From: Nitrososphaerota archaeon
GTDB lineage: Archaea > Thermoproteota > Nitrososphaeria > Nitrososphaerales > Nitrosopumilaceae
Direction: 5' to 3'
Length of the DNA: 19,912 bases
Assembly (NCBI GenBank): GCA_022573895.1
Contig: JACZTB010000032.1
Coordinates: forward strand, 1 to 19,912
The notes under the pieces are model-generated. The model was not told the origin of the DNA. It saw only the letters and a list, made by a program, of their open reading frames with translations, and searched no databases. This document shows positions 1-10,751 of this stretch, in pieces; positions within the stretch are counted from its first letter, which is position 1; every line of letters begins with the position of its first letter. The position numbers were made by a program, and so were the translations under genes.

Positions 1-68
1 CGAACATCAATTATTACAAATTCATCTTTTCTAGCCTTGAGATCTTGTCCAGATATTTTTTCTGCCAT
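1..68 (-). CDS. partial CDS (5' end only, continues past window start): rhodanese-like domain protein N-terminus
   Basis: ATG at 66-68 on the minus strand. It reads MAEKISGQDLKARKDEFVIIDVR, resembling the start of rhodanese domains (..L..........IDVR). Only 22 codons are visible. Confidence 0.35.
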   Translation of the reverse strand, partial: MAEKISGQDLKARKDEFVIIDV

Positions 69-269
69 GCATTATGTTTCTTATTTAGTAATTTAATCTA
101 AATGAATTTCTTGGTGATTACAGATTTCATTTTTCTTCAGGTTAGTCTGCCTTGCCTATAACCTTTTTGAGAATGCAGAATTTACTTAGGCTTTTGAGAA
201 ACCACATAAACTTTGTTTATTCTTCTATTATTGAGGAATTCTTAATTCTTAGTTTAACATAGAGAATAT

Positions 270-1178
270 GTGAAATCAAAAATTATTTGCATGATGTTAT
301 TTTCTGTTTTGATTATCAATATCACTCCCATCTTTGCTGAAGAAATTTCAGATGCCACAACTAATCTCCTTAACTATGATATTGAACCTGGTGAGCTAGC
401 TATAATGTGGTTGGGAAATCATCAAAAGGGTTCATTGGAGGGTTATGCTTCAGCAGGCTTTCTCTTAAGAACTACTAACTATGTAATCGCAATAGACCCG
501 TCAAGCTTATTCTTAGATGATGTTGATTCGTTGGACAGGTTAGATGCAATTTTCATAACTCATGATCATGGAGATCATTTTGATCCTAATACTGTAATAG
601 CAATGCAAGCCAAAACTGGTTCATATGTTATAGCAGATCCAACGTCAGCATCGATGTTATTTGATAAAATACCTGATGATAAGCTCATTCAAATCGAACC
701 AAATGAGAAAATAACTATCTCTGGAATTACTGTTGATGCATTTGCAGCTGAACATCCAACTGAAACCCCATTGCTTTATGTGATAGAGTTTGATGGATAT
801 AGAATATTTCATGGCTCGGATTCTGGATTCGTTGAGGATTTAAAGAACATTGAATCAAGAGTTCATGTGGCAATGGTTCCAGCTGGAGATCCTTCCCCAA
901 CTGCATCACCACAAGTTGCATTTGAAATGACTCAAGCGACCAATCCATATGTTGTTATTCCAATGCATGGCAGTCCAGAACAAATGGAAGAATTTTCTAA
1001 CCTTGTAGAAGGTTCTGGTCTGGGAACAACAGTTACAATTCCTTCAGCTTTAGAGATAATAGTTCCAACTGAGATTGTGCCAGAGTTTGGTTTACTTGCA
1101 GTTCTTGTGTTAAGTGCTGGAATGATAATGGTGATTTACATTTTACGTCAGAAATCATTAATTCAAATCAAATGTTAA
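270..1178 (+). CDS. secreted metallo-beta-lactamase-fold hydrolase with C-terminal PEFG + TM anchor
   Basis: 302-aa ORF with an N-terminal signal-like segment (MKSKIICMMLFSVLIINITPIFAEE) and an HDHGDH motif (HxHxDH of the MBL fold). The C-terminus is VPEFG followed by a hydrophobic helix and RQK (PEFG at 1080-1091). GTG start at 270; alternative ATG at 291. Confidence 0.85.
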   Translation: MKSKIICMMLFSVLIINITPIFAEEISDATTNLLNYDIEPGELAIMWLGNHQKGSLEGYASAGFLLRTTNYVIAIDPSSLFLDDVDSLDRLDAIFITHDHGDHFDPNTVIAMQAKTGSYVIADPTSASMLFDKIPDDKLIQIEPNEKITISGITVDAFAAEHPTETPLLYVIEFDGYRIFHGSDSGFVEDLKNIESRVHVAMVPAGDPSPTASPQVAFEMTQATNPYVVIPMHGSPEQMEEFSNLVEGSGLGTTVTIPSALEIIVPTEIVPEFGLLAVLVLSAGMIMVIYILRQKSLIQIKC

Positions 1179-1193
1179 ATTATCACGATTGAA

Positions 1194-1240
1194 GGTCAAA
1201 TCATTGTAATGCTTAAGGTCTATTTTTCGCGATTATTTTG
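1194..1240 (+). repeat. attL-like site: core GGTCAAATCATTGTAATG plus arm motif TCGCGATTATTTTG 15 nt downstream
   Basis: 1194-1211 matches 7432-7448 (GGTCAATTATTGTAATG) with one indel and one mismatch. The 14-mer at 1227-1240 is identical to 2587-2600. Confidence 0.4.
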
Positions 1241-1293
1241 ATTTTAGATATTAAGTGTAAACGAGTTTATCGACAATCAGTAAAAATAGAATG

Positions 1294-1357
1294 CCCCCTT
1301 TTCACGAATGAAAAGTCCTACTAATCCACGTTATAATGCGAAGTTAATTCGTTGATT
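1294..1357 (+). repeat. repeat A, copy 1 (about 60 bp, contains hairpin CTTTTCA-cgaa-TGAAAAG)
   Basis: By-eye alignment to 5171-5236 gives roughly four-fifths identity (CCCCCTTTTCACGAA..AAAAGTC..TAATCCAC.TTATAATG..AAGTT). It lies in a convergent intergenic gap. Confidence 0.7.
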
Positions 1358-1393
1358 AACAGTTTGTATCAAAAATCATGCACATTATTCTTT

Positions 1394-1564
1394 TCAATTA
1401 GATTTTGTTTTTTTCTGGCATAAATCGCATAATGTTTCATATATCATACTGTTTATTGGTTTGAATTCACTACCACAATTTGTACATGTATTAAGCAAGA
1501 TTACTCCTGTCTTGAACCCTATATCTTTTCTAACTCTTGGTTTGCTATTCTGTTCTTTTACCAA
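1394..1564 (-). CDS. small zinc-ribbon protein (about 56 aa, start uncertain, TTG at 1562-1564)
   Basis: Hand translation: ..NTCTNCGSEFKPINSMIYETLCDLCQKKTKSN*, giving two CxxC pairs. It overlaps the upstream gene end by about 20 nt. Below the ORF-track cutoff. Confidence 0.3.
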   Translation of the reverse strand: MVKEQNSKPRVRKDIGFKTGVILLNTCTNCGSEFKPINSMIYETLCDLCQKKTKSN

Positions 1565-1793
1565 AATATTTCTCCATTACCCCTGCAACATCATCTGCAA
1601 ACATGCCATGCTCTCCTTCATTCCATATTGTCCGTAATTCCTCAATCATTTTTTGATTCTTGAGGATTTGTTGCTTTAGACCTTCAAGATTATCTTCAGT
1701 ATGTGCCAATCTGGGAATCATGTAATAGTTATAATTCATTCCAACCAAAACAAAATCATCTTCAGATAGTTTAATTTTAGAAATTTCTGTCAT
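1545..1793 (-). CDS. hypothetical protein (82 aa), no recognisable motif
   Basis: ORF in the track. Its ATG overlaps the stop of the upstream gene (1790-1793), so it is part of a coupled minus-strand operon. Confidence 0.6.
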   Translation of the reverse strand: MTEISKIKLSEDDFVLVGMNYNYYMIPRLAHTEDNLEGLKQQILKNQKMIEELRTIWNEGEHGMFADDVAGVMEKYFGKRTE

Positions 1794-1975
1794 GGCTCAA
1801 TATGTGATACAACCCAGTCCTTTATTGCCATATCTGTTCGGTGTTCCTGACATCGAATATGAGGACATGGAATCAATCTACTGCAATTATCCTCTTCACA
1901 TTTTCTGTAAGTTCCTGGAATGTTAGTACCATTAGGGGATATTCGCAGATTGTCCTTATTTTTTTCTGATAACAT
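1790..1975 (-). CDS. small Cys/His-rich (zinc-binding-like) protein, 61 aa
   Basis: ORF in the track. Contains CEEDNCSRLIPCPHIRCQEH. Tightly packed against its neighbours. Confidence 0.55.
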   Translation of the reverse strand: MLSEKNKDNLRISPNGTNIPGTYRKCEEDNCSRLIPCPHIRCQEHRTDMAIKDWVVSHIEP

Positions 1976-1976
1976 C

Positions 1977-2087
1977 TTACTTGTTTGGAATTATTTTTTT
2001 AAAACATTTACAACCACAATCAAACATTCCAGCTTTTCCCATACATTGATCATGATGATCATTATAGCATTTATTCCAAGTCAGCAT
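1977..2087 (-). CDS. tiny Cys-rich protein, 36 aa
   Basis: Hand translation: MLTWNKCYNDHHDQCMGKAGMFDCGCKCFKKIIPNK*. The start shares one nt with the upstream stop (TAATG), and the stop lies 1 nt before the next ATG. Confidence 0.4.
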   Translation of the reverse strand: MLTWNKCYNDHHDQCMGKAGMFDCGCKCFKKIIPNK

Positions 2088-2191
2088 TAGTTATCCTTCT
2101 TTTTGTGAGTCTTTTCATGAAGGAATAATTTTTGAATATCCCCTTCTGATGCGTCCCAAGTAAAACTGCAATGTTTGCAATGATATGTCAT
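2087..2191 (-). CDS. tiny C2H2-like zinc-finger protein, 34 aa
   Basis: Hand translation: MTYHCKHCSFTWDASEGDIQKLFLHEKTHKKKDN*. The pattern is C-x2-C-x16-H-x3-H. It abuts both neighbours. Confidence 0.45.
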   Translation of the reverse strand: MTYHCKHCSFTWDASEGDIQKLFLHEKTHKKKDN

Positions 2192-2308
2192 TTATTTTTC
2201 TACATCCTCTGGTTTCTTTTTTTCAGATTCTTTGAAAGCATTTACGTCATTAGCGACCTGGGTCTTACAAGAACCAAATTGTAATTTTTTAATTATTTTT
2301 TTAAACAT
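2192..2308 (-). CDS. tiny hypothetical protein, 38 aa
   Basis: Hand translation: MFKKIIKKLQFGSCKTQVANDVNAFKESEKKKPEDVEK*. The stop directly abuts the next ATG (2191). Confidence 0.3.
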   Translation of the reverse strand: MFKKIIKKLQFGSCKTQVANDVNAFKESEKKKPEDVEK

Positions 2309-2322
2309 GTCTTTGACAATGT

Positions 2323-2418
2323 CTAGGTATGGAAAATTTTCTCACAAATGTTACACATAAATTTGTAAGGGCTGATTTGAATCCATTCGATACATCTAAT
2401 ACATTCTTTACTTGTCAT
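2323..2418 (-). CDS. tiny zinc-ribbon protein, 31 aa
   Basis: Hand translation: MTSKECIRCIEWIQISPYKFMCNICEKIFHT*, giving CxxC...CxxC. It is the first gene of the minus-strand run. Confidence 0.4.
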   Translation of the reverse strand: MTSKECIRCIEWIQISPYKFMCNICEKIFHT

Positions 2419-2523
2419 ACTATCTAACCATCATAAACTAATAAAAACATACATCGGTTTCTAGGTAACTTTATCATATTTTGGATGATATTACGATCAA
2501 ATAAAACAACTGGCTTGTTTGAA

Positions 2524-2560
2524 ATAATCATCATTTAACTCAAATCTCTCAGGGAAAAAT
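2524..2560 (+). repeat. repeat B, copy 1 (upstream flank of the minus-strand mini-ORF operon)
   Basis: ATAATCATCATTTAACTCAAAT (2524-2545) is identical to 6096-6117, and the similarity continues (CTCTCAGGGAAAAAT vs ATCTCTGGAAAAAAT). Confidence 0.75.
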
Positions 2561-2600
2561 ATCTTGTAATGAATTATGTCAATGAATCGCGATTATTTTG
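2561..2600 (+). repeat. internal att-like site: ATCTTGTAATGAATTATG plus the same arm motif at the same 15-nt spacing
   Basis: TTGTAATGAATTATG matches the right-end TTGTAATGAATAATG at 14 of 15 positions. TCGCGATTATTTTG (2587-2600) is identical to 1227-1240 with the same spacing from the core. Confidence 0.35.
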
Positions 2601-2669
2601 TAAAGGTTGGAGTCGAAAGCAACCCATAATCGATTGTCTGAGTGTTGGTATTGTGGTAAAAATTAGATT

Positions 2670-3434
2670 CTATGTATAAGGGCAGTATTTTTTATGTTCA
2701 TCAAAAACCGTTCGTATTAACAGAGTCAGATTCTTTTTCAATAACTCTAAATCAGATTTGTGGATTTTTGAAGAGGGTAAATGCGCAATATGATCTTGAT
2801 CGTTACGCATGACATTATAACTTTTAAAGAAACTAATCGATGCAGTTCGAATTGAAAAATTTACTGCCTTTGCCTCTTTAAATAAAATTGATTGCATTTC
2901 AGAAAATTTCTTTTCCCATTTGAGGTGTCTAACAGTACCCTCTAAAATTCCATGATCCATCAAAAATTTAGAACAAACTGTTTCCATAAAATTAAGAATT
3001 ACCAAAGAATCAATCCAATCTTGATTGATGTTACTAATTCCATGAGTTTGCCCGATTTCAATCACTTTATTTGTTATATTGCTCAATTTCATATATTGCG
3101 GAAGAGTGTTGGATTTGTTAGAAGATTTAGAAGATGAACCAGAAGAGGATGCATGACTAGTTATGGAAGAAAATTTCAATTTTTTTAATTCTGGGAGTTT
3201 TTGATAAATTGTAGTATTTCCAATTGTTGTAACTACTGTAAGAAGACCCATGTCTTCAAGATGCCCAAGTTTGTATGAAACATTACTATGTTGTTTTCCA
3301 AGAGTCTGTGCAATTTGAGTGCTATTTTTCTTACCGTTAACTTGTTCAAAAACATTCCAAGCAATTGAATTTTTTTTACCCAATATTGTCCGTGCATTAT
3401 CAAGTGTAGATGACATGTTTGCAAGTTTTGACAT
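2670..3434 (-). CDS. ArsR/MarR-like wHTH, Ser-rich linker, then alpha-helical C-terminal domain with an RNxxxH (HEPN-like) motif
   Basis: 254-aa ORF. The N-terminus reads STQIAQTLGKQHSNVSYKLGHLEDMGLL (wHTH recognition-helix pattern), followed by the linker SHASSSGSSSKSSNKSN. RNDQDH lies at aa 210-215 (nt 2790-2807), about 45 aa from the C-terminus. Confidence 0.75.
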   Translation of the reverse strand: MSKLANMSSTLDNARTILGKKNSIAWNVFEQVNGKKNSTQIAQTLGKQHSNVSYKLGHLEDMGLLTVVTTIGNTTIYQKLPELKKLKFSSITSHASSSGSSSKSSNKSNTLPQYMKLSNITNKVIEIGQTHGISNINQDWIDSLVILNFMETVCSKFLMDHGILEGTVRHLKWEKKFSEMQSILFKEAKAVNFSIRTASISFFKSYNVMRNDQDHIAHLPSSKIHKSDLELLKKNLTLLIRTVFDEHKKYCPYT

Positions 3435-3440
3435 TTATTT

Positions 3441-3764
3441 TTACTCCGGTACCTCATTAACTTCATAAAGTCTCAGAGGTTTAATCTCAATCCCCTTTCC
3501 CAGAGAATCTTCTACTAAAATAATTCCATTTTTCTTCCATTTCAAAATTGTTTGACCTAAACTTTGAGATGCAACCCCAGATTTTTTTGCTATTTCAGTA
3601 AGGGTAAATTTACCATTACACAAATTATATGCCTTAAGAAGTTCTTTTGGTTTCTTGCTATTTTTTTGTATTATTGCAATTAACTTTTCTTCTGGAAATA
3701 CCAATCTCCCCAATAGCGAAATAATGAATTTGTTCTGTTTGATTAATTCTTTAATCTCACTCAT
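3441..3764 (-). CDS. winged-helix DNA-binding protein (107 aa from ATG 3764; the track ORF extends to 3797)
   Basis: Contains FTLTEIAKKSGVASQSLGQTILKWKKNGIILVE. The start MSEIKEL overlaps the stop of the upstream gene by 8 nt. Confidence 0.7.
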   Translation of the reverse strand: MSEIKELIKQNKFIISLLGRLVFPEEKLIAIIQKNSKKPKELLKAYNLCNGKFTLTEIAKKSGVASQSLGQTILKWKKNGIILVEDSLGKGIEIKPLRLYEVNEVPE

Positions 3765-3966
3765 TTTTCTTTCTCCTATATTGTGACAATGTAACATTTA
3801 CGGTATTCTGACTTTTTCCTAAAATATTAGCAACATCCTTGTTAGCAATTCCAAGTTTACTAAGCAATACTATTTGTTCTCCAATTTCTTTACCTTTAAT
3901 TTGATTCATAGCTAGAAGTTTTATTATTACATCTAATTTTTCTATAATTAATTTGGATTCAGTCAT
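3757..3966 (-). CDS. small helix + HTH protein, paralog P1 (69 aa)
   Basis: KLDVIIKLLA ... LSKLGIANKDVANILGKSQNTVNVTLSQYRRK. The pattern is shared with P2-P5. ATGA overlap with P2. Confidence 0.7.
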   Translation of the reverse strand: MTESKLIIEKLDVIIKLLAMNQIKGKEIGEQIVLLSKLGIANKDVANILGKSQNTVNVTLSQYRRKKNE

Positions 3967-4190
3967 TTGTTACTCCTTCGTTTTTGTTTCACAAGTTCAC
4001 TTGACACATAGCCTCTAGACTTACCAAATAAATTAGCAATGACATTATCTGAAAAACCTAATCGATTTAACATGAAAAATTGCTCACCTGTATTCATTTC
4101 AGAGATTTCATTAGATCTAAGTGTCAAATATATTAAAAGTTCAAGATTTTTATTGATTTTTTCCAATACGATGGTATTAATTTCAGGCAT
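3963..4190 (-). CDS. small helix + HTH protein, paralog P2 (75 aa)
   Basis: KNLELLIYLTL ... LNRLGFSDNVIANLFGKSRGYVSSELVKQKRR. First gene of the minus-strand operon. Confidence 0.7.
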   Translation of the reverse strand: MPEINTIVLEKINKNLELLIYLTLRSNEISEMNTGEQFFMLNRLGFSDNVIANLFGKSRGYVSSELVKQKRRSNK

Positions 4191-4347
4191 GATTCTATTA
4201 ATATATAGAAAATTCTTGTATTTATGACTTTTTTTTTTAATATTTTTTATTGTTTTTTATGCCTGTTATTTTAATTATATTAATTAAGGAAGTAAATAAT
4301 ACAATAATCGACATAAAACTTAATTAGTAATATATCAGCAATACATT
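4191..4347. promoter_or_regulatory. divergent promoter/operator region between the two HTH operons
   Basis: 157-bp, very AT-rich spacer between divergent ATGs. Contains TTTTATGCCTGT (4255-4266) and the variant TTTATGACT (4221-4229). Confidence 0.45.
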
Positions 4348-4548
4348 ATGAGTAATGAAGAAAGTAAATCAATTGAAAAATTGTTATCTGAAATTAACAA
4401 AAAGTTAGATATTCTTATAGAAATTCAGATCCTTGACAAATCAGAAGATGATCAATTAAAAATGTTGAAAAGATTAGGATATTCTTCAAAAGATGCCAGT
4501 GAATTTACTGGAATAAGTTATTCTTCAATTAGACATAGAAAAGGGTGA
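4348..4548 (+). CDS. small helix + HTH protein, paralog P3 (66 aa)
   Basis: KKLDILIEIQIL ... LKRLGYSSKDASEFTGISYSSIRHRKG. Confidence 0.7.
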   Translation: MSNEESKSIEKLLSEINKKLDILIEIQILDKSEDDQLKMLKRLGYSSKDASEFTGISYSSIRHRKG

Positions 4549-4790
4549 AAAGATTAGTAAAAAAAACCAATGAAAAATCCAAAACAGAACTAGATCTTCT
4601 TAATGAAATTAGTTTAAAATTAGATAAGGTGATTGGGATTTTGGCATGTTCATCAATTAAAGAACCAAGAAACAAAATTCCGTTATTAAAAAATTTGGGA
4701 TTTACAATTGAAGATACTGCAAACATTACAGAACTAACAATAGATGTAGTGAAAAAAGAACGTTCTAAGTTAAAGGATTCTAAAAAATGA
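4545..4790 (+). CDS. small helix + HTH protein, paralog P4 (81 aa)
   Basis: LKLDKVIGILA ... LKNLGFTIEDTANITELTIDVVKKERSK. ATGA overlaps on both sides. Confidence 0.7.
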   Translation: MKRLVKKTNEKSKTELDLLNEISLKLDKVIGILACSSIKEPRNKIPLLKNLGFTIEDTANITELTIDVVKKERSKLKDSKK

Positions 4791-5005
4791 GTGATGACAT
4801 TTTAAAATCAATTAATCAAAAGTTGGATTCAATTCTAAAGATTTTAGCATTGCAATATATTGAAAACAAACCGAAAACAGAACAAGCAAATATACTATTG
4901 AATTTAGGAATGACCTCAATAGAAGTTGGAAAAATACTTGGAAAATCAGATGTGACAATTAGAAGACAAAAACAACAAGCAAGAAATAAAAAATCTAAAA
5001 ATTAA
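4787..5005 (+). CDS. small helix + HTH protein, paralog P5 (72 aa)
   Basis: QKLDSILKILALQ ... LLNLGMTSIEVGKILGKSDVTIRRQKQQARNK. Confidence 0.7.
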   Translation: MSDDILKSINQKLDSILKILALQYIENKPKTEQANILLNLGMTSIEVGKILGKSDVTIRRQKQQARNKKSKN

Positions 5006-5012
5006 TTTCAAA

Positions 5013-5086
5013 ATTATTTATGCCTAGAAAAATTATTTATGCCTATTCTTTATGCCTAGTATTACGCATAAAGATCTTTATGCGTA
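5013..5086 (+). promoter_or_regulatory. iteron-like cluster: 3 direct TTTATGCCTA repeats plus a 24-bp perfect palindrome of a variant half-site
   Basis: ATTATTTATGCCTA occurs at 5013-5026 and 5032-5045, and TTTATGCCTA at 5049-5058. TACGCATAAAGA|TCTTTATGCGTA at 5063-5086 is a perfect palindrome. Confidence 0.6.
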
Positions 5087-5170
5087 GAGTTGAATCTTAA
5101 TAGATTAGAATCTAAATTACATTTAAGATAATTTACCAAACAGATTACAGATAATCTCTAAAAAGGGACT

Positions 5171-5236
5171 CCCCCCTTTTCACGAACAAAAAGTCATGTT
5201 AATCCACATTATAATGTCAAGTTGATTTGTTTTGAT
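5171..5236 (+). repeat. repeat A, copy 2
   Basis: See copy 1. It again lies in a convergent gap, between the P5 end (5005) and the end of the GYNK-repeat gene (5287). Confidence 0.7.
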
Positions 5237-5286
5237 CTCATCCATTTTATTATCTTTGTATCTTTTTTAGGTCACAATTTTTATGA

Positions 5287-6042
5287 TTAATCATTTTTTA
5301 CTTCGATTTTATTTTTATTAAATTTGTTGTATCCATCTTTGTTGTACCCCTCTTTGTTGTAACCTAGGTGATCATATCCAAGTCTATCATACTCCTCTTT
5401 GTTATACCCAATACTATCATATCCATCTAAGTCATACCCATAACTGTCATATCCATTTCTATCATACCCATTACAATCATATCCATTTCTATCATACCCA
5501 TTTTTGTTATACCCGTCTTTGTTGTACCCATTTTTGTTGTACCCATCTAGGTCATACCCATTTTTGTTGTAACCCTTTTTGTTGTACCCATCTAGGTCAT
5601 ACCCATTTTTGTTGTAACCCTTTTTGTTGTACCCATTTTTGTTGTAACCCTTTTTGTTGTACCCGTCTTTATCAAAATTTATTCTTGTATCAATATGAAT
5701 TCCATCAAGATAAAAACCATGATTATCATACCCATTTTTGTTGTAACCCTTTTTGTTGTACCCATTTTTGTTGTACCCATCTTTGTTGTAACCCTTTTTG
5801 TTATACCCATTTTTGTTGTAACCCTTTTTGTTATACCCATTTTTGTTATACTCCTCTTTATTGTACCCGTCTTCATCATACCCATTTTTGTTGTAACCCT
5901 TTTTGTTGTACCCATCTAAGTCATACCCATTTTTGTTGTAACCCTTTTTGTTGTAACCCTTTTTGTTATACCCATCTTTGTCATACCCATCTTTGTCGTA
6001 TCCAAACTCGTCAAATTTTTTAAATTTATCAAATAACCCCAT
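5287..6042 (-). CDS. orphan G-Y-[ND]-K-x pentapeptide tandem-repeat protein (251 aa)
   Basis: ORF in the track. More than 40 consecutive GYNKK/GYNKN/GYDLD units are split by one non-repeat insert (NHGFYLDGIHIDTRINFDKD). No signal peptide or TM segment. The underlying 15/30-bp DNA periodicity runs from 5310 to 6000. Confidence 0.6.
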   Translation of the reverse strand: MGLFDKFKKFDEFGYDKDGYDKDGYNKKGYNKKGYNKNGYDLDGYNKKGYNKNGYDEDGYNKEEYNKNGYNKKGYNKNGYNKKGYNKDGYNKNGYNKKGYNKNGYDNHGFYLDGIHIDTRINFDKDGYNKKGYNKNGYNKKGYNKNGYDLDGYNKKGYNKNGYDLDGYNKNGYNKDGYNKNGYDRNGYDCNGYDRNGYDSYGYDLDGYDSIGYNKEEYDRLGYDHLGYNKEGYNKDGYNKFNKNKIEVKND

Positions 6043-6095
6043 AAAGATATGAAATTACTAGTGGATTATTACTATTTTGTAAATTTTGGACACAT

Positions 6096-6132
6096 ATAAT
6101 CATCATTTAACTCAAATATCTCTGGAAAAAAT
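6096..6132 (+). repeat. repeat B, copy 2 (upstream flank of the GYNK-repeat gene)
   Basis: 22-bp exact match plus a degenerate extension to 2524-2560. It lies about 55-90 nt upstream of the minus-strand ATG at 6042. Confidence 0.75.
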
Positions 6133-6199
6133 TCGGGGTTTAACAAAGTTGAATTGTTCATTTTCAGTCATTGGTGTTTACTAATTTACCATGTCAAGT

Positions 6200-7393
6200 C
6201 TATAGAATGATTTCAGAATCATCAACATCCTTAACGACTATAAAATCAGAATCATCATCAAATTTTACATGTTTTTCAATGTCAGGGTATTTACTCAGAG
6301 ATGACGAATCTAGTTTAGAATTTTTTCCTTCTTTACGTATTAATTCTGCTAGATCAAATTTCATTCTCATAAACTCGTTTTCTAAATTCCGTAGTTGTTT
6401 GGATTGATTTTCAAGTAAGGGGTTGTTTTTCTCTAATGCTTCTTTTTCAACCAATAGTCTCTCAGAACTATCTACTGTAAGATCTACAATCCCATTTTTG
6501 AACTCTTCAAACATTTGCTCAATTGTGGGTTGGAGATATGTTCCATCTAGTCCTCTCTTATGCCCCATCATTTTCTCAATAATATTGTCATTTACAGCCT
6601 TGTTTAACTTCAAAATAGTGTCAAATCTCTTCCTAAATCCATGTGCCAATTGTTCAGCATATCGACCATTCTTTTTCTGCCCTCTAACATTTGAGTTTTT
6701 TACTGCCCTAATCAAAATACCTTGAATTGCTCTTTTGGAAATTGGTTTGGGTTTTGAAATTCCCAATTGATAACGTTCTCTAAACAAAGGACTTTCATCA
6801 TTTAGAACTTCATGGTTTCTTTTTCTTTGTTCTAAATAATCATCTAATGCTTTGGAAGCTTCGGGTGTAAGAAATGTATAATATTCTTCAATTGAATCCT
6901 CATAAACTGTAATCATCTTACAGTCTAATGGCATATCTCTAATGTGTTTTAATTTCAATTCAGGTAATGAACCAACTCTAACACCAGATGATGCAAGAAA
7001 GTGAATGATTGCTTTGTTTCTAATTTGTGGAGAAACATCTAACATTTTTTTGACATCTTCCGTAGAATATGCAGAAGACCCTGAACGCTTAACAGGAGCA
7101 GGATAAAGTCTTTTGATTTTTCTCCAATTAAGATCAATGTCATTTGCTTCTAAGAAAGTTTTGATTGCATTAGCTTCTGATGGTAATGTGTTTGGACTGA
7201 TTTTCTTTTTGCGATGAATAACATAAGTTTCAACTAGTTTTTGTAGTTCTTTCTTTTCAATTTTTACAATACTATCAAAGTCTTGTATATTATGAAACTT
7301 CATGAACTTCATAACAAGATATGTGTACATCTTTACAGATTCTTGTGAACGTAATGATTCTTGAAATATCATTAGACTGTATTGTTCTACCAC
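6200..7393 (-). CDS. int: tyrosine recombinase / phage-type integrase with a long C-terminal coiled-coil/acidic tail
   Basis: 397 aa. Catalytic-box patterns: ASSGVRVGS (Arg), LAHGFRKRF (H-x-x-R), MGHKRG..GTYLQ (His..Tyr). GTG start at 7393 or ATG 21 nt downstream. Confidence 0.85.
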   Translation of the reverse strand: MVEQYSLMIFQESLRSQESVKMYTYLVMKFMKFHNIQDFDSIVKIEKKELQKLVETYVIHRKKKISPNTLPSEANAIKTFLEANDIDLNWRKIKRLYPAPVKRSGSSAYSTEDVKKMLDVSPQIRNKAIIHFLASSGVRVGSLPELKLKHIRDMPLDCKMITVYEDSIEEYYTFLTPEASKALDDYLEQRKRNHEVLNDESPLFRERYQLGISKPKPISKRAIQGILIRAVKNSNVRGQKKNGRYAEQLAHGFRKRFDTILKLNKAVNDNIIEKMMGHKRGLDGTYLQPTIEQMFEEFKNGIVDLTVDSSERLLVEKEALEKNNPLLENQSKQLRNLENEFMRMKFDLAELIRKEGKNSKLDSSSLSKYPDIEKHVKFDDDSDFIVVKDVDDSEIIL

Positions 7394-7415
7394 AATCTAG
7401 AATATAGTATCTACT

Positions 7416-7448
7416 AAATAATCGCGTTTATGGTCAATTATTGTAATG
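7416..7448 (+). repeat. attR-like site: inverted arm motif AAATAATCGCG followed by core GGTCAATTATTGTAATG
   Basis: 7416-7426 is the reverse complement of CGCGATTATTT. The core at 7432-7448 overlaps the last codons and stop (7438-7440) of the minus-strand TRASH-like gene. Confidence 0.4.
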
Positions 7449-7626
7449 AATAATGAACGTCACAAAAAAGGACTATTCCATGAGGCAAGGTTTTGGCAGT
7501 AATAGTATGACCATCTTCTATTCCTTTACCACAAACATAGCATTCCACTTTAGATACTGAAGATAGGACATTGTGTGATCTTAGAATCTGCATATCCTGA
7601 ATAATTGCTTGATTTACCCCCTGCAT
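7438..7626 (-). CDS. small TRASH/YHS-like zinc-ribbon protein (62 aa)
   Basis: CYVCGKGI-x(18)-FCDVH, resembling the CxxCG....FCSxxC TRASH/YHS pattern with His in the last position. Divergent from trpE. Confidence 0.5.
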   Translation of the reverse strand: MQGVNQAIIQDMQILRSHNVLSSVSKVECYVCGKGIEDGHTITAKTLPHGIVLFCDVHYSLQ

Positions 7627-7743
7627 AGTAATTCTACTACGATCAAATATGATATAAAGGTACCGTACTTTACCGTAATCATTTTATGCCTGTAAACCCA
7701 ATCATTTTAGACTAAAATGGTACGATCATAACCTACTGTTCAA

Positions 7744-7751
7744 TTTAAATA
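7744..7751 (+). promoter_or_regulatory. TATA-like box (TTTAAATA) for the trp operon
   Basis: About 27-34 nt upstream of the trpE start at 7778, consistent with a short-leader or leaderless archaeal transcript. Confidence 0.35.
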
Positions 7752-7777
7752 ATAAACCTCTAGGATTTGGTCTATGG

Positions 7778-9127
7778 GTGAACACATTTGGAAACTCTCA
7801 TGCAAAAGTAATACCCCTAGATTTATCTGAAAACCAATTTCAAATTTATAATAAAATTTCAAGAAACTATTCACATTCATTTCTCTTTGAATCATTAACA
7901 GGTCCTGAAGTACTAGCTGAAACATCAGTTATGGGATTTGACCCAAAGATAATTCTCAAAGGATATTCAGATAAAGTAGAAATTCTTCGAGGTGGAGATA
8001 CAGAAACCATACAAACTATAGACCCATTTGGAGAACTAAAGAAACTCTTAGGAAGATCAGATGATCAAAGTTATAGATATCTTGGTGGAGCAGTAGGGAT
8101 TGTTAACTATGATGCAATTAGATTGGTTGAAGATATTCCAGACAATCATAACTCACCGCAACCATTAATGGAGTTTGGAATTTATGATGATGGTATTCTA
8201 TATGATAATCTACACAAGAAACTATTCTATTTTTATCATGATGAGAATAGATTTGATAAACTAAAGATGAATGGTGATACATTTGGTGACTTCCATTCCA
8301 GCGAAGTAACACCAAATATGGATAAAGAAAAATTCTCAGATATTGTAAACAAGGCAAAAAAATTAATCTATGATGGAGATATCTTCCAAGTTGTTTTATC
8401 TAGGAAATTTGCATTTGAGAATAATGGAGATAATCTAACTTTATACAAAACATTACGAAAATTAAATCCATCACCATACATGTATCATTTAAAACAAGGT
8501 TCCAAAACAATCATTGGTGCATCTCCTGAAATGTTAGTACGTATAACTAATGATAGGGTAGAGACTTTTCCAATTGCTGGAACCAGAAAGATTACAGATA
8601 ATGAAGAAAAGAACAAACAGTTAGCTGATGAACTACTCCATGACGAAAAGGAACTAGCAGAACATACAATGTTGGTTGATTTGGGACGAAACGATATCGG
8701 CAGAGTATGCAAATATGGAACAGTCCATCCAGAATCTCTAATGCAGATAAAGCGATTTAGTCATGTTCAGCATATTGTTACGCACCTAGTAGGTAAATTA
8801 GCGCCTGAAAACGACATGTTTGATGCGTTCAAGGCAGTATTTCCAGCAGGAACAGTCTCAGGGGCTCCCAAAGTTCGGGCTATGGAGATCATTGATGAAT
8901 TAGAGACTGAAGCTAGAGGACCATATGCAGGGGCTGTTGGATATTTCTCATTTAATGGATGCTGTGACTTTGCAATAGCAATCAGAAGTATCTTCATTGA
9001 TGGGAAGAGAGGATTTGTTCAATCAGGAGCTGGAATAGTTGCTGATTCTGTTTCAGAACATGAATTCAAGGAGATAGAATTCAAGGCAGGTGCAATGCTT
9101 CAAGCATTAAAGGAGGCAACTAAATGA
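7778..9127 (+). CDS. trpE: anthranilate synthase component I
   Basis: 449 aa. Motifs LVDLGRNDIGRV, GAPKVRAMEII, GPYAGAVGYFSFNG. GTG start. Confidence 0.95.
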   Translation: MNTFGNSHAKVIPLDLSENQFQIYNKISRNYSHSFLFESLTGPEVLAETSVMGFDPKIILKGYSDKVEILRGGDTETIQTIDPFGELKKLLGRSDDQSYRYLGGAVGIVNYDAIRLVEDIPDNHNSPQPLMEFGIYDDGILYDNLHKKLFYFYHDENRFDKLKMNGDTFGDFHSSEVTPNMDKEKFSDIVNKAKKLIYDGDIFQVVLSRKFAFENNGDNLTLYKTLRKLNPSPYMYHLKQGSKTIIGASPEMLVRITNDRVETFPIAGTRKITDNEEKNKQLADELLHDEKELAEHTMLVDLGRNDIGRVCKYGTVHPESLMQIKRFSHVQHIVTHLVGKLAPENDMFDAFKAVFPAGTVSGAPKVRAMEIIDELETEARGPYAGAVGYFSFNGCCDFAIAIRSIFIDGKRGFVQSGAGIVADSVSEHEFKEIEFKAGAMLQALKEATK

Positions 9128-9714
9128 AATTTCTAATCATTGACAACTATGATTCATTTGTGTATAACATTGCACAATACCTAGGAGAATTAGGAGTTGA
9201 GTCAGATGTTATTAGAAATGATAAAATCACATTAGATGAGATTAAACAGAAAAACTATGATGCCATAATAATTTCACCAGGTCCAGGAACTCCAGAAGAG
9301 AAGAAATACTTTGGAATATGTTCAAATGTGATCAAAGACATGGGACCAACTACACCAATTCTTGGAGTCTGTCTTGGACATCAAGGAATTATTCATGCAT
9401 TTGGCGGTAAAGTTACAAATGCAGGATGTGTAAGACATGGAAAGACTAGTCCAGTTAATCATAATAATTCAGAGCTATTCAAGGGAGTAAGTAATCCATT
9501 TAGAGCAACAAGATATCACAGTCTGGTTGGAGATAAAACAATAATTCCAGATGTACTAGAAGTAACTGCTACTGCAGCTGATGATGGAGAGATAATGGCA
9601 ATAAGACATAAAGAATATCTAATTGAGGGAGTACAATTTCATCCAGAATCAATAATGACTGAAGAAGGCAAAAAAATTCTAGCAAATTTCATAAAACAGG
9701 TAGAAGAAAAATGA
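9124..9714 (+). CDS. trpG: anthranilate synthase component II (glutamine amidotransferase)
   Basis: 196 aa. GVCLGHQ catalytic Cys motif and QFHPES. ATGA overlap with trpE. Confidence 0.95.
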   Translation: MKFLIIDNYDSFVYNIAQYLGELGVESDVIRNDKITLDEIKQKNYDAIIISPGPGTPEEKKYFGICSNVIKDMGPTTPILGVCLGHQGIIHAFGGKVTNAGCVRHGKTSPVNHNNSELFKGVSNPFRATRYHSLVGDKTIIPDVLEVTATAADDGEIMAIRHKEYLIEGVQFHPESIMTEEGKKILANFIKQVEEK

Positions 9715-10751
9715 TTTCAAATTTAATTCAAAAATTAGAAGAGAAGACAGACCTTACCTATGATGAGATGAATAATGTCATGACAGACATTCTCTCAGGA
9801 AATACAAACATCCAACAGAATGCAGATTTTCTATCCAGTCTGGCAGACAAAGGAGAGACAGATGATGAACTACTTGGGATGCTGGATAAAATGCAAGAGC
9901 TATCTCTAAAAATTGAGCCTAAAAACGCTGGAACCATTATTGATATGTGCGGGACTGGAGGTGACAAGCTTCAAACCTTCAATGTCTCAACTACGGCTTC
10001 ATTTGTAGTAGCTGCTGCTGGAGGAGTAGTTGCAAAACATGGAAATCGTTCCACTTCAGGAGTGTCTGGAAGTGCAGATATTTTTGAGTATTTTGGATAT
10101 GATCTAAATCAAGAACCATCAAAAATTGTACAAATTCTAGAAAAGCATAAAATTTGTTTCATGTTTGCACAAAAGTTTCACCCAACAATGAAGCATGTTA
10201 GTCCAGCAAGAAAACAATTAGGAAAAAGGACAGCTTTTAATCTTCTAGGACCATTATCAAATCCTGCTGGAGTAAAAAATCAACTCGTCGGTGTATTCTC
10301 TAATGAATATCTTGACAGATTACCTATAATTCTAAAAAGAAAAGGTGCAGAAAATATTATGACAGTACGTTCTGATGATGGAATGGATGAATTTTCTACA
10401 AGTGCAACTAACCGTGTATGTATTTTGAAAAATGGCAAAGTGTTGATGAATGCGATTGATCCTGAAGTGGTAGGATTACACAAATCATCACTCAAAGACA
10501 TTCAGATTGAAACAAGAGAAGATGCGATAAAGTCATTTGTTAGTGTTCTGAATAATACTGCAAATCAAGCAATGATTGAAACCACAGCATTAAATGCAGC
10601 AGGAGGATTAATTGTTGCAAACATTGCAAATAATTTTGAAGAAGGAGTAGAATTAGCTATGAACACAATCAAAGATGGAAAAGCATTCAAGACTTTGGAA
10701 AACTTTGTTGCAGACACTGGAGACATTTCAAAATTAAAGGAGATTGTGTAA
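9711..10751 (+). CDS. trpD: anthranilate phosphoribosyltransferase
   Basis: 346 aa. Motifs CGTGGDK and KHGNRS. ATGA overlap with trpG. Confidence 0.93.
   Translation: MISNLIQKLEEKTDLTYDEMNNVMTDILSGNTNIQQNADFLSSLADKGETDDELLGMLDKMQELSLKIEPKNAGTIIDMCGTGGDKLQTFNVSTTASFVVAAAGGVVAKHGNRSTSGVSGSADIFEYFGYDLNQEPSKIVQILEKHKICFMFAQKFHPTMKHVSPARKQLGKRTAFNLLGPLSNPAGVKNQLVGVFSNEYLDRLPIILKRKGAENIMTVRSDDGMDEFSTSATNRVCILKNGKVLMNAIDPEVVGLHKSSLKDIQIETREDAIKSFVSVLNNTANQAMIETTALNAAGGLIVANIANNFEEGVELAMNTIKDGKAFKTLENFVADTGDISKLKEIV

Follow-up and report, generated by a model that had tools for sequence, protein, structure and literature searches.

In the 19,912-nt contig JACZTB010000032.1 of a marine ammonia-oxidising archaeon (Nitrosopumilaceae), the whole of which we call the window, we conclude with good confidence that 1175-7448 is occupied by an array of site-specific integrative elements, which a tyrosine integrase built at the last codons of a gene for a TRASH-like protein next to trpE. 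Copies of an 8-bp core, TTGTAATG, mark it out on the + strand at 1204-1211 (left), 2564-2571 (middle) and 7441-7448 (right). Between them lie an integrase-less segment, E1 (1212-2563), and a segment with an intact integrase gene, E2 (2572-7431). The island is a mobile-element array of an ordinary kind, standing at a widely used target that had not been described before. Related contigs and loci used for comparison are numbered L001 onwards.

Core-plus-arm sites and the integrase

A preliminary description of the window had reported three imperfect repeats, and these lie exactly where it placed them, GGTCAAATCATTGTAATG at 1194-1211, ATCTTGTAATGAATTATG at 2561-2578 and GGTCAATTATTGTAATG at 7432-7448, as do the arm words TCGCGATTATTTTG (1227-1240 and 2587-2600) and, inverted, AAATAATCGCG (7416-7426). 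It had also correctly counted 39 bp between the GTG start of the integrase gene (7393) and the repeat (7432), and had the right copy overlapping the stop codon of the TRASH-like gene, which at 7438-7440 does fall inside that copy. Its spacing of exactly 15 nt between repeat and arm word is right when measured from the end of the core (1211, 2571) but not from 2578, where it had ended the middle repeat. The crossover core that it proposed stands as a core with arms but shrinks to about 8 bp (TTGTAATG), the GGTCAA part belonging to the arm side. Left-right similarity extends further than it had given, with TAAATAATCGCG-TTTATGGTC-AATTATTGTAATG (from 7414) matching TAAATTATCACGATTGAAGGTCAAATCATTGTAATG (1175-1211).

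The right core forms the last codons (..SLQ) of the TRASH-like gene. Adjoining it, the integrase-side arm TACTAAATAATCGCGTTTATGGTCAATTA (7412-7440, + strand) provides that gene with its TAA stop and holds the inverted copy of the 11-mer CGCGATTATTT. The middle core, inside 2561-2578, is followed by the element-left arm of E2, AATTATGTCAATGAATCGCGATTATTTTG (2572-2600, +), recognised from the repeat, a shuffle test and an arm profile; the left core is followed by the corresponding arm of E1, CTTAAGGTCTATTTTTCGCGATTATTTTG (1212-1240, +), with CGCGATTATTT at 1228-1238. To the left of the left core lies a degenerate integrase-side arm, TAAATTATCACGATTGAAGGTCAAATCA (1175-1203, +), which overlaps the stop codon of the MBL hydrolase gene (1176-1178) and aligns with 7414-7440. 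The cores at 1204-1211 and 7441-7448 therewith have the layout of attachment (att) sites, the integrase start being 48 bp from the right core. Island DNA has a GC content of 30.0% (right flank 34.2%); its distance in tetranucleotide composition is 0.27, and that of flank chunks 0.10.

AT-rich DNA, a short core and a middle copy at chance level might lead one to attribute these sites to chance, or to regulatory motifs of a variable region that is not mobile, a reading to which we give next to no credence. It is refuted by shuffles and simulations, as well as by the 17 arm loci and the pairs of empty and occupied sites described below. The left site is the single best local-alignment match of the integrase-proximal junction across the rest of the island, and its score of 21 was reached in 0 of 300 first-order Markov simulations of 7.3 kb when the match could lie anywhere, and in 0 of 3000 at a fixed place. 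The arm 11-mer CGCGATTATTT occurs three times (two direct copies and one inverted) against 0.00 expected from 200 dinucleotide-preserving shuffles, and CGCG is as rare as had been supposed, with 4 occurrences in 19.9 kb, 3 of these within arms.

The integrase gene (6200-7393, - strand, GTG start) is intact and encodes 397 aa. All residues of the tyrosine recombinase catalytic motif (R...HxxR...H...Y) that were checked are present, namely R139, H251-x-x-R254, H278 and Y286. The protein matches Pfam PF00589 (E=3e-12) and the PHROG integrase category, and has 1056 homologues at E<=1e-10; its closest solved structures are those of archaeal XerA (5hxy and 4a8e), at low similarity.

The target gene and its occupied and empty sites

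The gene at whose end the array stands (7438-7626, - strand) encodes a 62-aa, Cys-rich TRASH-like protein with no Pfam match, and lies upstream of trpE in divergent orientation. Among 80 metagenome loci retrieved with a TrpE query, it adjoins trpE in about 75 (Nitrosopumilaceae), and as part of this pair (7438-7777) it may regulate the trp operon. Its 3' end, TTGTAATGAATAATGAAC, is highly conserved, and the sequence past the stop codon is hypervariable between lineages. A target at the 3' end of a protein-coding gene rather than in a tRNA, as had been proposed, agrees with both the arm and core at the TRASH-like stop codon and the lack of any tRNA found by ARAGORN in the window, which rules out a tRNA-targeting element.

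An integrase-side arm of the form CTA(G/C)TAAATAAT..CG.TT..(GG)TCAATTA precedes the core in 17 loci of several lineages (the window, L001-L003, L040, L054, L055, L057, L058, L060, L093, L101, L120-L122, L124 and L125). It abuts the TRASH-like stop codon, invariably TAA, in 16 of them; in L054 it belongs to an internal arm-core-arm junction some 2 kb away from the gene. Wherever the contig goes on, an integrase gene comes next, its product 45-95% identical to the window integrase where measured (75-91% in L120-L122, L124 and L125). All occupied sites have TTA before the core, hence a TAA stop, and integrase-less relatives have TCA or CTA (TGA or TAG stops).

A sister clade provides the site in both states. 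It is empty in L106, L107 and L108 (...CACACA CTA TTGTAATG AATAATG...), and carries inserts exactly at the core in L086 (+1026 bp), L087 (+1313), L092 (+281) and L093 (+909), flanked by core copies and the same arms. The L087 insert consists of two modules that are found singly in L086 and L092. That of L086 starts with CTTAGTGTTTATTTTTCACAATTATTTTT, an element-left arm like that at 1212-1240 of the window, and its other end, AAATAATGTTGTTATAAAATTAATC, can be recognised as an integrase-side arm; the family therefore includes mini-elements that lack an integrase yet have both arms. These pairs, together with the 17 arm loci, uphold the core-plus-arm reading that the preliminary description had given of its three sites.

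Three loci show other arrangements. In L123 (10001-11101), an integrase with 64% identity lies beside aconitase-family genes instead of the TRASH-like gene; since integrases of at least 75% identity use the TRASH site, a switch of target falls between about 64% and 75% identity. L049 (1643-2014) has, joined at TTATTGAAGTA to the TRASH-like gene's end, a piece of E1 (95% identity to window 2312-2479) and a piece of the 97-aa open reading frame (ORF) in the extra module of L005 (see below); the C-terminus thereby becomes ..HYLLQ, through either recombination at a core-like secondary site or a deletion. In L122, a search with core and arm for the far att site of its element of about 8 kb gave none that was convincing.

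Layers of the array

Exact-protein look-ups led to metagenome contigs and contigs of metagenome-assembled genomes (MAGs) that match the window at 99-100% identity. L001 and L002 lead from trp across the TRASH-like and integrase genes and stop at window 6063 and 6208. L004 leads from the upstream genes across the MBL gene and E1 and stops at 2572, one base beyond the middle core, a weak piece of evidence that suggests population heterogeneity at module borders. Most informative is the MAG contig L005 (GCA_022572565.1), which matches window 1-1211, continues with 830 extra bases and rejoins the window at 1205, so that TGTAATG stands duplicated on either side of the insert, exactly at the left core. 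Its E1 is essentially identical to that of the window, the differences in the alignment being nearly all in the arm after the middle core. From that core onwards L005 departs from the window, with an arm of the other type (attaaggtctatttttcgcgattattttt, resembling the left arm of the window) and then 446 bp unrelated to E2. The left and middle cores are therefore both breakpoints between near-identical strains, and the division into an integrase-less segment (about 1212-2563) and an integrase-bearing one (about 2572-7431), first drawn from the repeats, is borne out.

A profile of the core with the element-left arm located further copies: two in the window, two in L005, three in L124 and two in L049, besides those in L087, L086 and L054. 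In L124 the TRASH-like gene is followed by an integrase gene (88% identical) and six ORFs, then by core and arm, a Metallophos gene, core and arm, an HNH gene, and core and arm once more. In L005 and the window, an internal att copy separates units that vary independently between strains, and L124, L087 and L054 have similar internal junctions. The inverted 11-mers of the two arms co-vary, AAATAATCGCG going with CGCGATTATTT in the window and AAATAATCTCG with CGAGATTATTT in L124, with CGCG in the former and CGAG/CTCG in the latter, which supports the two arms as putative paired binding sites of one element. Arm-core-arm junctions are found internally in L054 and L087 and at the left site of the window, and should be the remnants expected of serial integration at the gene-proximal core. 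Part of the 1175-1203 arm, GGTCAAATCATTGT, is also found about 0.9 kb from the TRASH-like gene in L043 and L044, which lack the integrase, and hence this layer is old.

Two pairs of direct repeats that had previously been overlooked were recovered with a repeat finder: D2 (90 nt, 78% identity; 1264-1353 and 5142-5231) and D5 (37 nt, 92% identity; 2524-2560 and 6096-6132). D5b (6096-6132, +) lies between the stop codon of the integrase gene and the start of a cargo gene. D5a (2524-2560, +) is the conserved intergenic block that occupies this gap in full elements, and here abuts the core; homology of E1 with D5b ends exactly at the left edge of the core. The order integrase-D5-cargo-D2 recurs in L120 and L125, and D2-cargo-D5 without an integrase in L042. 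Judged from these arrangements, the backbone of the subfamily is probably core, element-left arm, D2, cargo, D5, integrase, integrase-side arm and core. Five different cargos occupy the D5-D2 slot across elements, and comparison of cargo between elements revealed no common cargo proteins. In L125 the slot is taken by an Hcp-like protein, in L120 by an acidic, membrane-anchored one.

In the model that we favour, the integrase would recombine a site on the element, in which the core stands between the arms TACTAAATAATCGCGTTTATGGTCAATTA and ..TCGCGATTATTTTG, with the chromosomal site, the last 8 bases ahead of the TRASH-like stop codon. Strand exchange would take place inside the core; the two arms of the element site contain an inverted 11-mer. 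Integration would leave the TRASH-like protein unchanged and would replace its stop codon and the DNA downstream by element DNA (TAA). New elements would enter at the core copy adjacent to the gene, so that older layers would be pushed leftwards and decay. E2 would be the current integrase-bearing layer, comprising arm, helix-turn-helix (HTH)/iteron module, D2, cargo, D5, integrase and arm; in other words, the backbone with a 2.5-kb HTH/iteron module between arm and D2. E1, in which arm, D2, cargo and D5 follow in the backbone order of E2, would be a relative from which the integrase and the integrase-side arm were deleted precisely up to the core, and is best read as a deletion derivative of an E2-like element. 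It would now be mobile only together with E2 or by recombination between core copies. The degenerate arm at 1175-1203 would be the sole remnant, the right end, of a still older element.

The tandem of two elements first proposed is accordingly retained as far as the split into E1 and E2 goes, but the left site is itself an arm-core-arm junction, and therefore at least one older layer preceded E1. Likewise, the mini-element that E1 was thought to be does lack an integrase but is not self-contained, its right end having no integrase-side arm. Were the array active at present, the model predicts ...GGTCAATTA-TTGTAATG-AATTATGTCAATG... (in longer form AAATAATCGCGTTTATGGTCAATTA-TTGTAATG-AATTATGTCAATGAATCGCG) as the junction of an E2 circle, and ...GGTCAATTA-TTGTAATG-CTTAAGGTC... 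(in longer form ...GGTCAATTA-TTGTAATG-CTTAAGGTCTATTTTTCGCG) as that of a circle of E1 and E2 together. The chromosomal site would become ...GGGAAAAATATC-TTGTAATG-AATAATGAACG... after loss of E2, and GGTCAAATCA-TTGTAATG-AATAATGAACG after loss of all layers.

Several observations weigh against this model. The core is very short, and its copies in decayed modules are imperfect. The third repeat is present at 2561-2578 but its core alone is within chance, its score of 14 being lower than the null mean of 15.1; TTGTAATGAAT with at most one mismatch occurs 3 times against 2.2 expected, and the middle core alone is hence not significant. It is the arm (the 14-mer at identical spacing) and the comparative data that validate the middle site. 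An exact search of genome and metagenome collections did not find the reconstructed empty site (CAAATCATTGTAATGAATAATG) of the lineage of the window, no TRASH-like or trp genes lie near the MBL homologue in relatives that have one, and scans of viral contigs for the integrase and for the att pattern revealed no circular junction or free form (nor any match to the D2 pattern). The integrase-side arm is a putative site for either the integrase or an accessory protein. Because the right end of E1 has no integrase-side arm, two independent integrations are not separable from recombination of related elements at shared blocks.

This last point is the strength of a reading that we consider unlikely, in which 1212-7431 entered as one composite element in a single integration, and the site at 2564-2600 and the duplicates of D2 and D5 arose by homologous recombination or duplication between related elements, whether prior to integration or later. 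D5a runs directly into the core, D2 and D5 supply 37-90 nt of homology for ordinary recombination, and the middle core by itself is at chance level, all of which would fit. However, L005 has a near-identical E1 followed by unrelated DNA right past core and arm, which marks the E1/E2 boundary as a site-specific breakpoint between strains, and internal core-plus-arm junctions also bound separate modules in L124, L087 and L054.

Somewhat more plausible, although still improbable in our view, is a cassette platform, in which the integrase at its fixed site captures and shuffles integrase-less modules, each with one core and one arm of about 37 nt, in a functionally integron-like manner. It would account for the Metallophos and HNH single-gene modules of L124, each preceded by core and arm after the integrase element, for modules of 281-1313 bp in differing combinations among the near-identical L086, L087 and L092, for the 830-bp module of L005 and for the five cargos in one D5-D2 slot. 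Yet serial integration followed by deletion yields an identical picture, the L086 module has both arms, like a shrunken full element, and the modules are on the side away from the integrase-proximal site. No circular cassettes were seen, and the arms, judged by eye only, have no conserved hairpin of the attC kind.

The MBL hydrolase gene had been taken as the left flank of the island. Synteny with integrase-less relatives stops near window 242, and this gene therefore also lies in the variable zone (242-1178). The predicted empty site with the MBL gene directly beside the TRASH-like gene was not found in relatives. As an anchor for an empty site the MBL gene is uninformative: its relatives, at 73-84% identity, have unrelated neighbours, and its adjacency to the TRASH-like gene is therefore not ancestral. 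In its place, the closest integrase-less relatives (the set L043, L044, L046, L047 and L048) have a DUF1059-like gene or other ORFs; L048 has an MBL gene, yet 1.8 kb of other ORFs lie before the TRASH-like gene.

Casposon-like block, cargo and related systems

The D2 block resembles the left junction of a casposon. D2a (1264-1353, +) consists of TTT (1266-1268), the 13-mer ATCGACAATCAGT (1269-1281) and AAAAATAGAATGCCCCC (1282-1298), and D2b (5142-5231, +), in the same orientation, has the 13-mer ACAGATAATCTCT at 5147-5159 and a run of C at 5171-5176. Set beside the family-1 casposon terminal inverted repeats listed by Krupovic et al. 2019 (their Table S2; PMC6563490), ATCAGTAAAAATAGAATGCCCCC of D2a agrees with the NitNF5-C2 repeat ATCAATAAAAATAGAATGCCCCCC at 22 of 23 positions, and D2b resembles the NitNF5-C1 repeat. 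Like D2, the family-1 casposons of Nitrosopumilus (NitNF5-C1/C2, NitAR1-C1) combine a leader TTT and a 13-mer with a terminal repeat of the AAAAATAGAATGCCCCC type. The target of the N. koreensis casposase is a leader TTT with the 13-bp ATTGATAAAGAGT, in which A1, A11, T13 and the ATAA ruler are required (PMC8464041). TTT and a 13-mer likewise stand ahead of the repeat-like part of D2, the 13-mer being ATCGACAATCAGT in D2a and ATCGATAAAGATT in L042, and L042 retains everything that the N. koreensis casposase requires.

Further D2 copies are present in L042 (690-789), L120 (2364-2463) and L125 (2938-3027). In L120, the integrase of which is 90% identical, D2 faces an inverted repeat across exactly 13 bp (AGAGATTGTCTAT; 2425-2490), and behind this second repeat lies a module of at least 7.7 kb (2467-10237) that encodes a protein-primed PolB (PF03175) and a protein with a TIR domain; no Cas1 gene appears before the contig stops. 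This layout looks like two casposons sharing one target duplication, one casposon having landed beside the integrase element. A solitary D2-like leader with 13-mer and C-run in L104 (19746-19800), 8 kb downstream of trpE and beside unrelated ORFs, may be a casposon remnant.

Both the match of D2a to NitNF5-C2, with a TTT and 13-mer resembling the N. koreensis target, and the arrangement in L120 would be accommodated if D2a and D2b were the ends of casposon-like transposons moved by Cas1, with the integrase as a passenger. We hold this to be very unlikely, and for the window it is largely refuted. Its two D2 copies are direct, no inverted partner was found within it, and neither Cas1 nor PolB was matched among the island ORFs scanned, which were the main ones (the smallest were not all compared to Pfam). 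Nor were inverted terminal repeats with a target duplication found in the window, and the strain-to-strain breakpoints lie at TTGTAATG cores, not at D2; in these respects the island differs from family-1 casposons, its mobile boundaries being integrase cores. D5 was considered as the other casposon end and rejected by inspection. With direct copies and no inverted partner, Cas1 or PolB found, D2 is therefore treated as a casposon-junction-like block of the backbone, possibly a landing pad; it is not the mobility mechanism of the island. More tentatively, and at low probability, the array may be a cassette platform for small integrase-less modules (8-bp core and arm of about 37 nt), reshuffled between near-identical strains, that in addition carries a working landing pad for family-1 casposons in its backbone. 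If so, the landing pad would physically couple a tyrosine-recombinase element with Cas1-driven transposons, as L120 suggests.

The cargo of E1 (1394-2534, - strand) consists of orphan ORFs of 56, 82, 61, 36, 38 and 36 aa, several of them cysteine-rich and with no significant family match; the segment is also present in L004 and L005. Rfam gave no match at family gathering score in positions 1-8000. A sub-threshold C/D-box small nucleolar RNA (snoRNA) match inside the 82-aa ORF (1688-1768, - strand; 28.6 bits versus a gathering score of 52, E=0.04) is probably due to chance. The module specific to E2 (2670-5005) encodes winged-helix proteins of 254 and 118 aa and five paralogous HTH proteins of about 70 aa with 30-42% mutual identity, arranged divergently (3757-4190, -, and 4348-5005, +) around an AT-rich gap (4191-4347, 23% GC). 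Next to it are four direct copies of an iteron-like TTTATGC(C/G)TA (5017-5086, +), the last within a perfect 24-bp palindrome, TACGCATAAAGATCTTTATGCGTA (5063-5086), the left half of which is an inverted iteron copy. By their layout, iterons and palindrome are a candidate origin of E2, or a candidate operator for its winged-helix proteins. The D5-D2 slot of E2 holds a 251-aa protein (5287-6042, - strand) composed almost entirely of G-Y-N/D-K (GYNK-type) pentapeptides in about 25 in-register copies, with a 15-nt period in the DNA and no family match. With PADLOC, island proteins had only weak winged-helix matches, and defence-type matches (TIR domain, HNH) were confined to the cargo of relatives.

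Archaeal integrases of the pNOB8 type leave their gene intact on integration, unlike those of the SSV type. The island integrase has an unbroken 397-aa ORF with its att site outside the gene, as in pNOB8-type elements, and an SSV-type element, with the att site inside an integrase gene that integration splits, is ruled out; the solved structures closest to the island integrase are, in contrast, XerA proteins, at low similarity. Bacterial integrative elements undergo accretion with cis-mobilisable elements (CIMEs), e.g. in ICESt1/ICESt3 of Streptococcus thermophilus. The island shares with CIMEs an integrase-less, att-flanked unit in tandem with an integrase unit at the 3' end of a gene, and a composite that can in principle excise whole, but differs in its archaeal host, in an unrelated integrase subfamily, in much smaller units (0.3-5 kb) and in the lack of one arm in E1. 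L124 resembles integrons in having a tyrosine recombinase at a fixed site followed by co-oriented small modules, each with a conserved recombination site. Unlike in integrons, no folded attC-type site is evident, some modules are multi-gene and in both orientations, and modules may be decayed elements. The two single-gene modules of L124 (Metallophos phosphoesterase and HNH nuclease) span 4096-5832 in this integron-like architecture.

Closer to hand are the integrated elements of thaumarchaea with XerC/XerD-like integrases, of which 14 of 68 are in the 3'-distal part of protein-coding genes; in one, NitEve-E2, the element supplies a stop codon in place of that of the host, and tyrosine-recombinase elements are known to form tandem arrays by re-using one site (PMC6563490). 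The cryptic elements NitEve-E2, NitD3C-E3 and NitUzo-E2 are, like the island, small, with an integrase, winged-helix proteins, orphan genes and short att sites, whereas the family of the island has in addition multi-layer arrays, integrase-less modules and a casposon-end-like block. TTGTAATG is in none of the att sites of Table S2 of that study, which makes no mention of a trp-adjacent or TRASH target; a conserved hypothetical gene that it reports as targeted in N. koreensis and N. piranensis could not be linked to the TRASH-like gene (PMC6563490).

Altogether, our analysis defines an uncatalogued integration hot spot of Nitrosopumilaceae, the last codons of the TRASH-like gene by trpE, and supplies the sequences of its core and arms. 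With them, mobile DNA can be recognised and its borders set in the many fragmented genomes from marine ammonia oxidisers, the contigs of which tend to break there. The locus also provides natural strain-to-strain cases of gain and loss of modules at an 8-bp core, and points to a possible link of integrase elements with casposons in a group where a casposase, that of N. koreensis, is already characterised.

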